From: Escherichia phage vB_EcoM_JS09
Reading direction: 5' to 3' (one strand)
DNA length: 64,000 nucleotides
Sequence record: NC_024124.2
How positions within the stretch are numbered: the first letter of the stretch is position 1; each line of letters opens with the position of its first letter. A program made the translations under genes and the position numbers. Below, piece by piece: positions 945 through 62,449 of this stretch. The notes beneath the pieces are model-generated. The model was not told the DNA's origin. It was given only the letters and a program-made list of their open reading frames with translations, and made no database searches.

Positions 945-1159
945 CTAAAGAACAGCATGAATACATTAAAGGGCTTATCTATGAATCTGAAATGGCGGCC
1001 ATGATTTACGGGCGACAGATTCAACGATTAGAATCTTTGCCTCCGACTAATGACCGATTGTTAGTTCAGTCTCGTGCTAATCTGAAAAATGAATATCAGA
1101 ATAAGTGGGCAGTAGCGACTAAAGCTCTTCACGAGTATATTGAATCTTTAGTAAAATAG
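935..1159 (+). CDS. hypothetical protein
   Basis: 74 aa ORF, ATG preceded by AAAGAGGAAAA; overlaps stop of upstream gene. Confidence 0.5.
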   Translation: MPMTKEQHEYIKGLIYESEMAAMIYGRQIQRLESLPPTNDRLLVQSRANLKNEYQNKWAVATKALHEYIESLVK

Positions 1160-1188
1160 TTTACAAACTCTCAGGAGCAGAGTATAAT
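1159..1188 (+). promoter_or_regulatory. T4-type early promoter (GTTTAC -35, TATAAT -10) nested in inverted repeat AGGAGCA/TGCTCCT
   Basis: GTTTAC 1159-1164, TATAAT 1183-1188, inverted repeat flanks -10; followed by GAGGAA RBS and ATG 1217. Confidence 0.6.
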
Positions 1189-1216
1189 GCTCCTATGGAT
1201 AATTGAGGAAATCTAA

Positions 1217-1516
1217 ATGAAAACATTACTAGAGAATTACATCAAACGGTCTGATGAGTATATTGATATCTGTCGTGGAATGTCACTCGGCAATTATGAC
1301 AAAGATGCAGCAAAGGCACTAGATGAAGCAGGTAAAGCTCTTCGTAAAGCTGCTAAAGAAAAAGGGTTGGATTTGCAACAACTCAAAAGTCATATGATTA
1401 AATTTATTTCTTCAAACGTTAGAAGTACGTCAATTAATAAAAACGTTGCTGAAATTAATAAAGACCGGCGCGAGCATAACATTCGTATTCTTGAAATTTT
1501 CTTAGGAATAAAATAA
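1217..1516 (+). CDS. hypothetical protein
   Basis: 99 aa ORF behind early promoter module and GAGGAA RBS. Confidence 0.55.
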   Translation: MKTLLENYIKRSDEYIDICRGMSLGNYDKDAAKALDEAGKALRKAAKEKGLDLQQLKSHMIKFISSNVRSTSINKNVAEINKDRREHNIRILEIFLGIK

Positions 1517-1707
1517 TGGACCAAGCCAAAATCGATAAGTTAATCCATACGCTTGTAGCAGATATCAATACACGGGCTCTTCGTAAATCGCAGAATGGCG
1601 ATTCTTGGACTATGCAAGATTGCAAGAAAGGTGCTGAACTAGGACGTGAAATTGCTAAAATTCTTGGTGGACAATTTGAATTTGCTGAAGAGGTAGTAAA
1701 ACTGTGA
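1516..1707 (+). CDS. hypothetical protein
   Basis: 63 aa ORF, start overlaps upstream stop, stop overlaps pseT start. Confidence 0.45.
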
Positions 1708-2603
1708 AAAAGATTATTTTGACTGTAGGTTGTCCTGGGTCTGGTAAAAGCACTTGGGCTCGTGAATTTATTGCTAAGAATCCTGGGTTCTTTAATATCA
1801 ACCGCGACGATTATCGCCAATCCATCATGGGTCACGAAGAACGTGACGAGTACAAATATACTAAAAAGAAAGAAAGTATCGTAACTTATATGCAACACGA
1901 TGCGGCACATATGATTCTCTGTCAAGACGGAACTAAGGGTGTTATTATTTCCGACACCAACTTAAATCCTGAACGTCGTCTTGTCTGGGAAGAATACGCT
2001 AAGGAGTGGGGCCATGAAGTTGTATATCAAGTGTTCGATGTTCCATGGACCGAATTGGTTAAACGTAATGCTAAGCGTGGCACAAAGGCTGTTCCTATTG
2101 ATGTTCTACGTTCGATGTATTCTCGTATGCAAGAATACAAAGGACTTCCGGTTTATAAAGGAACTCCCGGTAAACCTAAAGCGGTTATCTTCGACCTTGA
2201 CGGGACTTTAGCTCTACATGTTGCTCGTGGGCCTTATGAGTTAGATAAACTATCCACTGACGCCCCGAACCCTATGGTTGTCGAATATGTTAAGATGCTT
2301 CATCAGGCAGGGTATACAATTATTACTGTAAGCGGTCGTGAATCAGGCACTAAAGAAGATTCAATGTGTTATTACGAAGCAACTAAAAAATGGATGGACA
2401 CGTTTTCTATTCCATGGGAAATGCATATTCAACGTAATCAAGGTGACACTCGTAAGGACGATGTTGTTAAGGAAGAACTCTTTTGGAACTGTATTGCTCC
2501 TTATTATGATGTGAAATTGGCCATTGATGACCGTAACCAGGTTGTGGAAATGTGGCGACGTATTGGTTTAGAATGTTGGCAAGTCGCATTCGGTGATTTT
2601 TAA
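1704..2603 (+). CDS. pseT: polynucleotide 5'-kinase / 3'-phosphatase
   Basis: 299 aa; near-identical N-terminus to T4 Pnk ([23 protein letters not shown]-loop) and HAD phosphatase motif DLDGTL. Confidence 0.95.
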
Positions 2604-2794
2604 TGAAACGATTATATGAAGTGATTGAGGCCATCGAACAGCATAAAGAATATTTGTTTGTAGCCTGGCCTTTAGTAAATGGACAGTTCGGTATTGATGT
2701 GCTGGACTATGAGCATGAAGAACGTTTGGACGGTGGTATATTTGATAACGTCGACCAGGCAATTGAATGGTTAAATGAAAACTATGTACGATAA
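2603..2794 (+). CDS. hypothetical protein (cd.x region)
   Basis: 63 aa ORF, taATG overlap with pseT stop. Confidence 0.5.
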   Translation: MKRLYEVIEAIEQHKEYLFVAWPLVNGQFGIDVLDYEHEERLDGGIFDNVDQAIEWLNENYVR

Positions 2795-2999
2795 ACATCA
2801 TGAAATCGAAGATGAAGCATACAAAATGCTTCGTAAACTAGTGGGACTTAATATGAGTCCTACATTAATCAACAAACTCGCAGGAATTCGTAATGATCTG
2901 AATACTCGTTACAAAGGCGAATATCATGTAGAGTTTGTTCCTGTAGGTGAACCGACCGAGCGATTTGTTGTTCGAGTTAAAGTAAATACTGTACACTGA
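2775..2999 (+). CDS. hypothetical protein (cd.x region)
   Basis: 74 aa ORF; start uncertain (ATG 2775 or 2784). Confidence 0.45.
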   Translation: MKTMYDKHHEIEDEAYKMLRKLVGLNMSPTLINKLAGIRNDLNTRYKGEYHVEFVPVGEPTERFVVRVKVNTVH

Positions 3000-3006
3000 G
3001 GTAATT

Positions 3007-3282
3007 ATGTTCCCAACTTATTCTGAAATTGTAAAGGTAGTCTTCAGTCAGATTATTGCTAATAATATGTTTGAAGTGCTTGATAATGCAGCCGAACTCA
3101 GAGTTCATGCTCAACTAACTCATGTACTCAATGCTTTGCTCCCAGACCAAGTAGATTCTATTGCTATTACTCTTCTCCCTGGGTCTGCGCACGTCATAGT
3201 GGTATTTGATCTTGATGGTGATTTAGTTATCCAGTGTGATATCAATTTCGGTACACAAAAAATTGAATGCAAAGCAATTTAA
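3007..3282 (+). CDS. hypothetical protein (cd.x region)
   Basis: 91 aa ORF with GAGGT RBS. Confidence 0.5.
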   Translation: MFPTYSEIVKVVFSQIIANNMFEVLDNAAELRVHAQLTHVLNALLPDQVDSIAITLLPGSAHVIVVFDLDGDLVIQCDINFGTQKIECKAI

Positions 3283-61361: not shown

Positions 61362-61365
61362 TAAA

Positions 61366-61596
61366 ATGTCTACTGAAACTATCGAAAAACTGCAGTCTGA
61401 AATCGTTACTCTGAAATCTCGCATTCTTGATACTCAAGACCAAGCAGCTGCTATCCAGCAAGAATCTCAACAACTTGGTAGTGCTCTTGCTAAAATCGCT
61501 AATCTGGTTGGTATCACTGGCGAATCAGTTAAGATTGATGACCTGGTAGAAGCAGTACGTGAACTTGTTGAAACTGAAACTGCAGAAGAAGAATAA
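61366..61596 (+). CDS. 57A: tail-fibre assembly chaperone
   Basis: 76 aa; matches T4 gp57A as recalled ([17 protein letters not shown]). Confidence 0.9.
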
Positions 61597-62051
61597 TGAA
61601 ATTTGAGGACTTTTCACAAGGCCTCTACGTCGCAGCTAAATTTTCGGAATTAACACTTGATGCGCTGGAAGACCTCCAGCGTAAATTAAGAATTCCTAAT
61701 CCAGTACCACGTGAAAAGCTTCATTCAACAATTTGTTATTCACGTGTAAACATACCATATACTACGTCTAGTGGTAGTTATTCTATTGCCGAATCAGGAC
61801 ACTTTGAGGTATGGAAAACTGACGACGGCGCTGTACTGGTTTTAGTTCTTGATTCCGAATATCTTAGATGTCGTCATCAGTATGCACGAGCTTTAGGTGC
61901 TACTCATGATTTCGACGACTACACTCCACATATAACGTTATCATATAACGTTGGCCAACTATCATTCAGTGGTGATGTAGCTATTCCGGTTATTCTCGAC
62001 CGTGAATACAAAGAACCCTTAAAACTAGATTGGGCCGAAGATCTAAAATAA
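61596..62051 (+). CDS. 57B: 2H phosphoesterase (T4 57B; anti-CBASS Acb1 family)
   Basis: 151 aa directly after 57A; two H-x-T/S motifs (HSTICYS, HITLSY). Confidence 0.85.
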
Positions 62052-62064
62052 TTTTCACAAAACA

Positions 62065-62094
62065 GTTTACATAAGGATGATGGTGTGTTACTAT
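62065..62094 (+). promoter_or_regulatory. T4-type early promoter nested in inverted repeat AGGATGAT/ATCATCCT
   Basis: GTTTAC 62065-62070, TACTAT 62089-62094; RBS AAGGAA then ATG 62129. Confidence 0.55.
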
Positions 62095-62128
62095 CATCCT
62101 ATCAAATAAACAACCTCAAGGAAATAAA

Positions 62129-62416
62129 ATGAAAACCTATAAAGAATTTATATCACCTGTTGCTAACGTTTCTACTCTGACTGAAGCAACCCTTACTTCC
62201 GAAGTTATTAAAGCAAACAAAGGCCGTGAGGGTAAACCAATGATTAGTCTAGCTGACGGCGAAGAAGTAAAAGGTACTGTTTACTTAGGAGACGGGTGGT
62301 CCGCTAAGAAAGATGGCGCTACTATTGTTATCTCTCCGGCTGAAGAGACTGCACTGTTTAAAGCTAAGCACATTTCTGTAGCTCAGCTTAAAATTATTGC
62401 AAAAACTCTTCTGTAA
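62129..62416 (+). CDS. ipI: internal protein I precursor with capsid-targeting sequence
   Basis: 95 aa; N-terminal MKTYKEFIS resembles T4 CTS MKTYQEFIAE; L-T-E at residue 19 fits gp21 cleavage motif. Confidence 0.85.
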   Translation: MKTYKEFISPVANVSTLTEATLTSEVIKANKGREGKPMISLADGEEVKGTVYLGDGWSAKKDGATIVISPAEETALFKAKHISVAQLKIIAKTLL

Positions 62417-62419
62417 GTA

Positions 62420-62449
62420 GTTTACACGCTGATAGGACTATGTTATAGT
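62420..62449 (+). promoter_or_regulatory. T4-type early promoter nested in inverted repeat TGATAGGACTA/TAGTCCTATCA
   Basis: GTTTAC 62420-62425, TATAGT 62444-62449. Confidence 0.55.

Follow-up and report, generated by a model that had tools for sequence, protein, structure and literature searches.

A probable T-even form of the promoter-early stem-loop cassette at nine loci of Escherichia phage vB_EcoM_JS09

Promoter-early stem-loops and the promoter modules of JS09

The promoter-early stem-loop (PeSL) was defined in the T4-type phages RB49 and phi1 as an early promoter with an AT-rich upstream region and a stem-loop, carrying a Shine-Dalgarno sequence (SD) and a start codon at its 3' end (Arbiol 2010, PMC2839356). 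Here we analyse nine promoter modules in a 64,000-nucleotide (nt) stretch of Escherichia phage vB_EcoM_JS09 (NC_024124.2; hereafter the window, numbered from its first letter), which match this anatomy of early promoter, AT-rich region, stem-loop, and SD with ATG. In RB49 and phi1 the stem-loops are situated most often between the -35 box and the -10 box or over the -10, the promoters are very strong, mini-circles form, and one RB49 stem-loop matched a strong terminator in lowering the expression of a lacZ reporter downstream (Arbiol 2010, PMC2839356). PeSLs were later extended to PST/T4, with the form AGNA-loop-TCNT, and to nt-1/KVP40 (Comeau 2014, PMC4122927). As relayed by Arbiol 2010 (PMC2839356), Repoila 1994 described analogous elements at T-even internal-protein (IP) loci, built around T4 early promoters and having weaker, AT-rich stem-loops. 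RB69-like phages were not analysed in the T-even PeSL papers, RB69 is not mentioned in Arbiol 2010 (PMC2839356), and we found no description of PeSLs in RB69-like phages in the literature searched. For RB69 itself, 57 early promoters were predicted by Nolan 2006 (PMC1524935); neither that work nor Hinton 2010 (PMC2988021) mentions hairpins or palindromes in promoters, and the reviews of T4 transcription mention no promoter hairpins and state that the shut-off of early promoters is unexplained.

On sequence identity, the window is that of an RB69-like T4-type phage of the genus Mosigvirus (RB69 group). It is 97-98% identical to the Mosigvirus phages F2 and HX01, its first 12 kb being ~98% identical to both over the whole length, and it is colinear with HX01 except for two indels. 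Like the PeSLs of RB49 and phi1, its modules exist in many copies, mostly where the genome is variable, and are found at borders of indels or replacements of small open reading frames (ORFs). The RB49 elements, however, have near-perfect TTGACA/TATAAT boxes, stems made of G/C runs (GGGG...CCCC) and copies that are very alike, whereas the -35 of the window modules is GTTTAC, their stems are AT-richer and locus-specific, and no two copies have more than 15 nt in common; terminator activity and mini-circles have been demonstrated for RB49 and phi1 only. Several window arms read AGGA.../...TCCT, as in PST/T4, and the IP locus with the modules at 62065 and 62420 is the classic T-even shuffling site. 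The legend in Comeau 2014 (PMC4122927) places the stem-loops just upstream of the promoter, whereas five of those in the window lie over the -10 and only the module at 6837 has an upstream terminator.

With a probability that we put at roughly 0.72, the nine loci are sigma-70-dependent early promoters of the T4 type that together constitute the T-even version of the PeSL cassette, with the hairpin playing its role in read-through RNA. The PeSL interpretation offered by an earlier note on this DNA is supported, for a kind of element already described in T4-type phages. The PeSL picture is extended to the RB69 group and no new kind of element is revealed; not found in the PeSL papers or the T4 reviews consulted are the compensatory changes across genera and a strand-biased wobble pattern pointing to sense-strand RNA.

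Promoter motif, hairpins and their conservation

The motif GTTTAC-N16-20-TANNNT occurs 13 times in the window, compared with 4.3 +/- 1.8 times in shuffled sequences, and none of 100 shuffles reached 13. Among these matches are all nine loci for which the earlier note had claimed a shared GTTTAC, spacer and -10 (1159, 3285, 6837, 7280, 8365, 14182, 29516, 62065 and 62420). Each of the nine is intergenic, lies on the + strand, which is the early-gene strand, has correctly spaced -35 and -10 boxes with an AT-rich upstream region, and is followed by an SD and ATG. The SD is found 43-59 nt past the G of GTTTAC, a slightly wider range than the 45-55 nt first reported; SD and ATG come with a leader of 23-41 nt and open ORFs of 61-122 amino acids (aa). 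At three modules GTTTAC shares its G with the TAG stop codon upstream. The features of T4-type early promoters (Pe) are present, namely GTTTAC at -36 to -31, a TGn-extended TAnnnT -10, A-rich sequence at -40 to -44, and C at -3 to -1. The whole HX01 genome, which we assembled out of five pieces, contains 42 promoters of the GTTTAC type, and their consensus (A-rich upstream element, GTTTAC, TGn, -10, CC at -3/-2) agrees with the RB69 early-promoter logo of Nolan 2006 (PMC1524935).

The Pe of T4 and the promoters predicted in RB69 share this consensus and the same positions before cd.3, 30.8, 30.7 and alc, and the four T4 promoters have the same architecture as the window modules, hairpins included. 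The modules at 3285, 6837 and 7280 are orthologous in position to the T4 promoters before cd.3, 30.8 and 30.7, and because T4 has the same promoters there, the ORFs that these modules precede are taken as the cd.3, 30.8 and 30.7 orthologues. We infer early activity from this orthology with T4 early promoters, of which the one before cd.3 is named Pe133295 in the T4 record. The assertion that all modules stand before genes that T4 lacks or has in variable form therefore fails for these three and also at the IP locus, where an internal-protein gene comes after 62065 and tRNA.4 after 62420; most of the downstream ORFs have T4 orthologues. Of the nine products, one is an internal virion protein, and the other eight fall into PHROG families whose function is unknown.

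The inverted repeats quoted earlier for 1172-1196, 3297-3323 and 62430-62459 are real, with coordinates correct to within 1 nt, and the arms do differ from locus to locus. A repeat flanking the -10, said to occur in most loci, was found in only five of the nine (1159, 3285, 7280, 62065 and 62420), with 7-12 base pairs (bp). Perfect Watson-Crick stems enclose the -10 at 1159 (7 bp), 7280 (11 bp), 62065 (8 bp) and 62420 (11 bp), and the stem at 3285 has 9-12 bp including G:T pairs. A stem of at least 7 bp arises in the background with a probability of 1.7-1.9% per site, and swapping left and right halves among the nine loci gave p = 0.0009. RNA folding z-scores were -3.97 at 3285, -3.67 at 7280, -3.88 at 62065 and -4.61 at 62420, with -1.6 at 1159; folding was not significant at 6837 (z = -0.56), 8365 (z = 0.07), 14182 and 29516. 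A stable stem-loop is placed elsewhere at the promoter at 14182 and, weakly, at 8365 (both in the spacer) and at 6837 (an upstream terminator); 29516 has none.

The same complementarity is found across HX01, where a perfect helix of at least 7 bp, reaching from the spacer to downstream of the -10, is present in 13 of the 42 promoters, against 2.7 expected from pseudo-sites and 3.2 from non-cognate halves. Helices of at least 10 bp occur in six promoters, with about 0.1 expected, and permutation by swapping halves between loci gave P < 5e-5. Three registers can be distinguished: the -10 in the loop; a hairpin inside the spacer with the loop AAGGA; and an anti-SD type, in which a segment just past the -35 (TTCTCCTC...) pairs over 10-14 bp with the SD of the downstream gene.

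Relatives were drawn from IMG/VR as nineteen 21-kb loci around ligase, seven around pseT and 42 around tk, with the T4 region taken from GenBank; as queries, ligase and thymidine kinase yielded far better than pseT (7 loci) and rIIA (3). A motif scan of IMG/VR with GTTTAC-N17-19-TANNNT-N20-45-TGAGGAAA gave mostly unrelated contigs among the matches listed and was not used. The hairpin of the 30.7 promoter, orthologous to the module at 7280, is kept in every lineage examined, its left arm starting at position 10 from the -35. With the left arm fixed at positions 10-17 from the -35, all eight pairs form in seven sequences of five lineages, and both sides have changed at six of the eight. The left-arm variants, each with a matching partner, are GGTACAGG, GGTGTAGG, GGTGAGGG, GCTGATTG and TGTAGGAG. 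Because the length of the loop and the position of the arms vary by 1-4 nt, MAFFT alignments of these orthologues did not bring the arms into register and were used neither for RNAalifold nor for pair counts. Stepwise change through G:T is found at two further loci: orthologues of 1159 go from AGGAGCA/TGCTCCT via GGGAGCA/TGCTCCT to GGGAGCA/TGCTCCC, and relatives of 3285 have GGTAGGACT/AGTCCTACC and GGTAGAGTT/AGCTCTACC with G:T intermediates. The promoter of Dhakavirus MX01 that is orthologous to 62420 has the arms GATAGGGTA/TACCCTATC. Compensatory changes across genera show that it is in all probability the hairpin itself that is maintained.

Mismatches within the stems point to the molecule concerned. 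A set of 325 unique promoters yielded 107 unique stems with 8 or more Watson-Crick pairs, whose internal mismatches comprise 31 G:T, 13 A:C and 11 others. Relative to a non-cognate baseline, in which G:T makes up 0.44 of the transition-type mismatches, this gives p = 3.5e-4, and p = 0.012 after de-duplication of related contexts. The excess of G:T over A:C favours a single-stranded molecule of the sense strand, most simply RNA.

Modules and cassette borders

The modules and their parts are as follows.

1159-1219, + strand: module A, with -35 GTTTAC at 1159-1164 (the G is the last base of the upstream TAG stop) and -10 TATAAT at 1183-1188
1173-1179 and 1188-1194, + strand: inverted repeat of module A, AGGAGCA / TGCTCCT
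1195-1217, + strand: downstream part of module A, with predicted +1 at A1195, SD GAGGAA at 1204-1209 and ATG at 1217 of a 99-aa ORF (phrog_2364)
3285-3345, + strand: module B, orthologue of the T4 cd.3 early promoter, with -35 at 3285-3290 and -10 TACTAT at 3309-3314
3296-3304 and 3315-3323, + strand: arms of module B, GGTGGAGTT / AACTCTACC, with one G:T
3321-3343, + strand: downstream part of module B, with predicted +1 at A3321 and ATG at 3343 of a 78-aa cd.3-like ORF (phrog_1504)
6782-6909, + strand: module C, before the 30.8 orthologue, with -35 at 6837-6842, -10 TACTAT at 6860-6865 and ATG at 6907 (122 aa)
6782-6803, + strand: intrinsic terminator with a UUCG tetraloop upstream of module C, GGGAGAC-TTCG-GTCTCCC at 6782-6799, then TTTT
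6843-6847 and 6896-6900, + strand: weak anti-SD of module C, TCTCC against GGAGA, a 5-bp pairing
7280-7352, + strand: module D, orthologue of the T4 30.7 early promoter, with -35 at 7280-7285 and -10 TATTAT at 7303-7308
7287-7297 and 7311-7321, + strand: arms of module D, TTGGTACAGGT / ACCTGTACCAA, with predicted +1 at ~G7315 and ATG at 7350 (121 aa)
8365-8422, + strand: module E, with -35 at 8365-8370 overlapping the stop of ORF 7751-8365, -10 TATAAT at 8390-8395 and ATG at 8420 (65 aa)
8371-8374 and 8381-8384, + strand: weak 4-bp spacer hairpin of module E, ATCC / GGAT, loop AAGGAC
14182-14243, + strand: module F, after alt, with -35 at 14182-14187 overlapping the alt stop and -10 TACTAT at 14206-14211
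14190-14195 and 14198-14203, + strand: 6-bp spacer hairpin of module F, ACACAT / ATGTGT, with predicted +1 at A14218 and ATG at 14241 (97 aa)
29510-29846, + strand: one-gene cassette between the late genes 24 and 23, with ATG at 29576 of an 89-aa ORF running to 29845
29516-29521 and 29540-29545, + strand: -35 and -10 of the module in the 24/23 cassette, with no -10 hairpin
62065-62131, + strand: module P1 of the IP locus, with -35 at 62065-62070 and -10 TACTAT at 62089-62094
62074-62081 and 62093-62100, + strand: arms of module P1, AGGATGAT / ATCATCCT, with predicted +1 at A62101
62129, + strand: ATG of the module P1 ORF, a 95-aa internal virion protein
62420-62490, + strand: module P2, before tRNA.4, with -35 at 62420-62425 and -10 TATAGT at 62444-62449
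62430-62440 and 62449-62459, + strand: arms of module P2, TGATAGGACTA / TAGTCCTATCA, with predicted +1 at A62456 and ATG at 62488 (61 aa)

The earlier note had made the coincidence of cassette boundaries with the modules a test of its reading, and indels or replacements in relatives indeed end in or at 29516, 62065, 62420, 6837/7280, 1159 and 3285; at 14182 no cassette border was seen in relatives. RB68 and other T4-type phages lack the cassette at 29510-29846, which is inserted relative to them, homology stopping 6 nt before the -35 and resuming right after the stop codon; phage LF82-1 has a homing-endonuclease gene in its place. The IP locus of RB69 contains one IP cassette more than the window, which matches RB69 up to 62151 and again from 62097. 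The joint thus lies within 55 nt (right arm, leader and first codons) that are common to the two RB69 modules P1 and P1b at about 80% identity. In AV109 a chimeric module combines a foreign left half with the TAGTCCTATCA right half, and Dhakavirus MX01 shares only 62477-62721 at 96% while the flanks are 74-80% identical.

A replacement is seen between JS98 (L134) and a related locus, L132, which are ~100% identical through the orthologue of module C as far as ATGAAAA. Beyond this point a different ORF body takes over, and the two match again starting with the -35 of the module D orthologue, so that the exchange falls exactly between two modules. The two orthologues have a 49-nt direct repeat in common. 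The right arm of the 30.7 promoter recurs, in four lineages, as the right half of the adjacent 30.8 promoter, and in the window the sequence past the -10 of module C, agacttgtacc, copies the right arm of module D. This copying of right halves between neighbours explains why module C has half a hairpin, with no cognate inverted repeat around its -10. At modules A and B, relatives have an extra ORF between the same promoter with its SD and the ORF that follows in the window. The modules could serve annotation as start points of early transcription units, and they flag sites of cassette exchange, among them the internal-protein locus, which is linked to host defence and host range.

Extra genes with their own promoters are also reported from another phage group, the lambdoid phages, as the morons said to have been described by Juhala et al. 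in 2000. The cassette at 29510-29846 is likewise one extra gene with its own promoter, set between two conserved genes beside an existing terminator hairpin; unlike a moron, its promoter module belongs to a family repeated genome-wide. A hairpin at 29856-29873, GGGAGACCGAAGTCTCCC, comes after the cassette ORF, and RB68 possesses a counterpart of it. Gene 24 (- strand) has its late-promoter motif, TATAAATA, at 29501-29509, adjoining the left junction of the inserted cassette. A further promoter-like match on the - strand, GTTTAC-19-TATAGT at 29541-29572, stands face to face with the module at 29516 and shares the palindromic CTATAG with it; it points to late gene 24, and its -35 is the complement of the GTAAAC between the SD and ATG of the cassette.

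The GenBank record of T4 notes at 133300-133313 (9801-9814 of our T4 region, L155) a 14-nt stretch once reported as its own inverted complement, and this stretch forms the loop that contains the -10 of the early promoter before cd.3, whose window orthologue is module B. The -35 of module E overlaps the stop of ORF 7751-8365 (204 aa, phrog_17531). Among the 14 non-Mosigvirus relatives compared, 13 lack a homologue of that ORF and the remaining one (L146) gave one weak 25% match, and promoter 8365 was found in none of the 14; both are present in HX01. Orthologues of module F have CCACA-agga-TGTGG and GCAC-aaggaa-GTGC at the same place. Spacer hairpins of this kind, having the loop AAGGA(U) and covarying stems (CCACA/TGTGG, GCAC/GTGC, CAACCA/TGGTTG), occur at 14190-14203 of the window, in its orthologues among L132-L149, and in HX01 at 55533, 97253, 135230 and 136413. 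Their motif ACA-AGGA-UGU resembles the CsrA binding consensus, which may be coincidence; GGA is found in the spacer of 14 of the 42 HX01 promoters, compared with 17% per random 18-mer. Rfam recognized no known RNA family at the modules, its sole match being one tRNA.

Possible role of the hairpin and rival explanations

The predicted +1 is the A of a conserved ATCAA, 7 nt past the -10, and the right arm ends within a few nt of it, so the hairpin should form only in RNA reading through from upstream and not in the module's own transcript. Downstream of each promoter would come a short leader, A/C-rich and unstructured, and then a small early gene, with a locus-specific inverted repeat spanning the spacer to just past the -10 in about half of the modules. 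Read-through RNA from an upstream promoter would fold the hairpin, which most likely marks and insulates the end of the upstream cistron, possibly as an attenuator, as for one RB49 PeSL, or as a structure protecting the 3' end, while the leader that begins the module's own transcript would be free. In the DNA, recombination may join unrelated cassettes at the conserved core of promoter, leader and start codon (10-50 nt shared between modules), which would give rise to insertions, deletions, replacements and chimeric promoters.

The same principle is known from T4, where hairpins with a promoter inside them mask the ribosome binding site in long transcripts of e, soc, 49 and I-TevI (Uzan and Miller 2010, PMC3014915); there, too, the 5' arm is upstream of an internal promoter and only read-through RNA folds. 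The T4 hairpins hide the SD, whereas the five of the window leave it outside the helix. Neither SD nor AUG is enclosed in any of the five, the right arm ending 10-40 nt before the SD. The sole hints of SD-region pairing in the window are the 5 bp at 6837 and, at 29516, 7 bp between TGTTTAC (29515-29521) and GTAAACA (29567-29573), just past the SD, which is the only pairing of that module. SD-hiding at early promoters is found elsewhere, at HX01 44659, 98771 and 41551 and at T4 alc, in contrast to the known cases, which concern late or middle promoters. These anti-SD early promoters (TTCTCCTC..., 10-15 bp with the SD; L153/L154 for HX01, 136336 in T4, L155) stand before regB, alc and other genes, whose ribosome site would be hidden in read-through RNA but accessible in the RNA that starts at the promoter itself.

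A bolder extension, which we hold to be doubtful, is that the hairpins are a genome-wide RNA device of T-even phages, by which every early gene would exist in two RNA forms, folded when read through and open when promoter-proximal, because the 5' arm is upstream of each early start site. If so, the read-through form would hide the ribosome site in some genes, each cassette would owe its expression or stabilisation essentially to its own promoter alone, and the rule known for the late genes e, soc and 49 would extend to dozens of early promoters. In a more remote variant, the same structure may take part in the unexplained shut-off of early promoters.

Several observations weigh against the PeSL reading with a role in read-through RNA. 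Four of the nine loci lack the hairpin in the -10-in-loop geometry, 14182 and 29516 having just 5 bp and 6837 and 8365 none. The five -10 hairpins are not followed by a U-run (the sequence is A/C-rich on the + strand, and the - strand has no T-run) and are therefore not canonical intrinsic terminators; only 6782-6803, upstream of module C, is of that type. The promoter consensus is partly self-complementary (TAGG...CCTAT), which shows that part of the repeat stems from the consensus. In 28 HX01 promoters with an 18-nt spacer, fixed-register pairing amounts to 54.5% versus 52.1% in shuffles and is clearly above slid registers, a modest signal because only a third of the promoters have a hairpin and the consensus is self-complementary. 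Regarding the cassettes, ORF-level synteny reveals many indels between genera with no module at their borders, and in that comparison the ORFs beside modules are no more variable than others. The at most 15 nt that window modules share exactly are thin for homologous recombination. Finally, arm-to-arm template switching could produce compensatory changes without selection.

An RNA-level role in read-through transcripts is nevertheless the explanation that we favour, the main rivals being a structure in DNA and the non-functional maintenance of quasi-palindromes. The inverted repeat might work in DNA, where a cruciform or a hairpin of single-stranded DNA over the -10 would modulate the promoter, e.g., in its shut-off, or be cut by structure-specific nucleases of the phage and so seed recombination. 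We consider this improbable, although the repeat sits exactly where RNA polymerase contacts and melts the promoter, the shut-off of T4 early promoters is not understood according to the reviews, and recombination joints fall inside the loop or right arm, the RB49 crossover having been mapped to the loop (Arbiol 2010, PMC2839356). A cruciform needs both strands paired, yet G:T on the sense strand is tolerated ~2.4 times more than its reverse, A:C; stems of 7-12 bp with loops of 8-13 nt extrude poorly; and the forms that pair the spacer with the SD make sense in RNA only.

About equally improbable is the view that the repeats have no function, being quasi-palindromes that template switching in replication (arm-to-arm conversion) created and keeps perfect, or scars of recombination between modules; they would show up at promoters since little else in the genome is non-coding. 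For T4 mutagenesis, the correction of quasi-palindromes by template switching is said to be established from Ripley's work, and it would mimic compensatory change. The persistence of chimeric modules with a broken hairpin (6837; AV109), the T4 cd.3 promoter loop once reported as an inverted complement in the T4 record, and the restriction of stems with at least 8 Watson-Crick pairs to about one third of the promoters fit this view as well. It has to contend, however, with the 30.7 hairpin, which is kept with the same left-arm start in five lineages whose downstream-ORF proteins are only 43-92% identical. Moreover, conversion does not predict a strand-biased mismatch spectrum, and halves swapped between promoters, which are also non-coding, give far fewer helices. 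That the repeat is an operator for a dimeric DNA-binding repressor of early promoters is very unlikely: it is symmetric, overlaps the core promoter and has a partial common core AGGA...TCCT in several modules, but the arms differ completely between loci and orthologues with complementarity kept, which is the signature of a structure and not of a binding sequence.

The early genes alc, pseT, DAHP synthase, cd, 31, rIII, ligase (30) and alt occupy the + strand at 1-14.5 kb, with late structural genes, mostly on the - strand, downstream of this block and the IP locus at 62 kb. Some T4-like lineages possess, and others lack, the gene for DAHP synthase (aromatic amino-acid pathway; 3700-4692), which in the window separates the cd.3-like ORF from cd; neither of its borders carries a promoter module. 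At 59034-59065 the window lacks an insertion of 677 bp found in HX01, where it places a homing-endonuclease gene between genes 4 and 2. Four of the 42 HX01 early promoters have an upstream UUCG terminator, and all four are without a bridging hairpin, a number too small for conclusions. A tenth full match to the motif, missed in the earlier note, lies at 26672-26701 (GTTTACA-17-TACTAT) inside a DUF2774-like ORF. TG is missing in front of its -10, and neither an SD nor an ATG lies within 60 nt; the match is shared with HX01 and might serve the genes that follow as an internal promoter.

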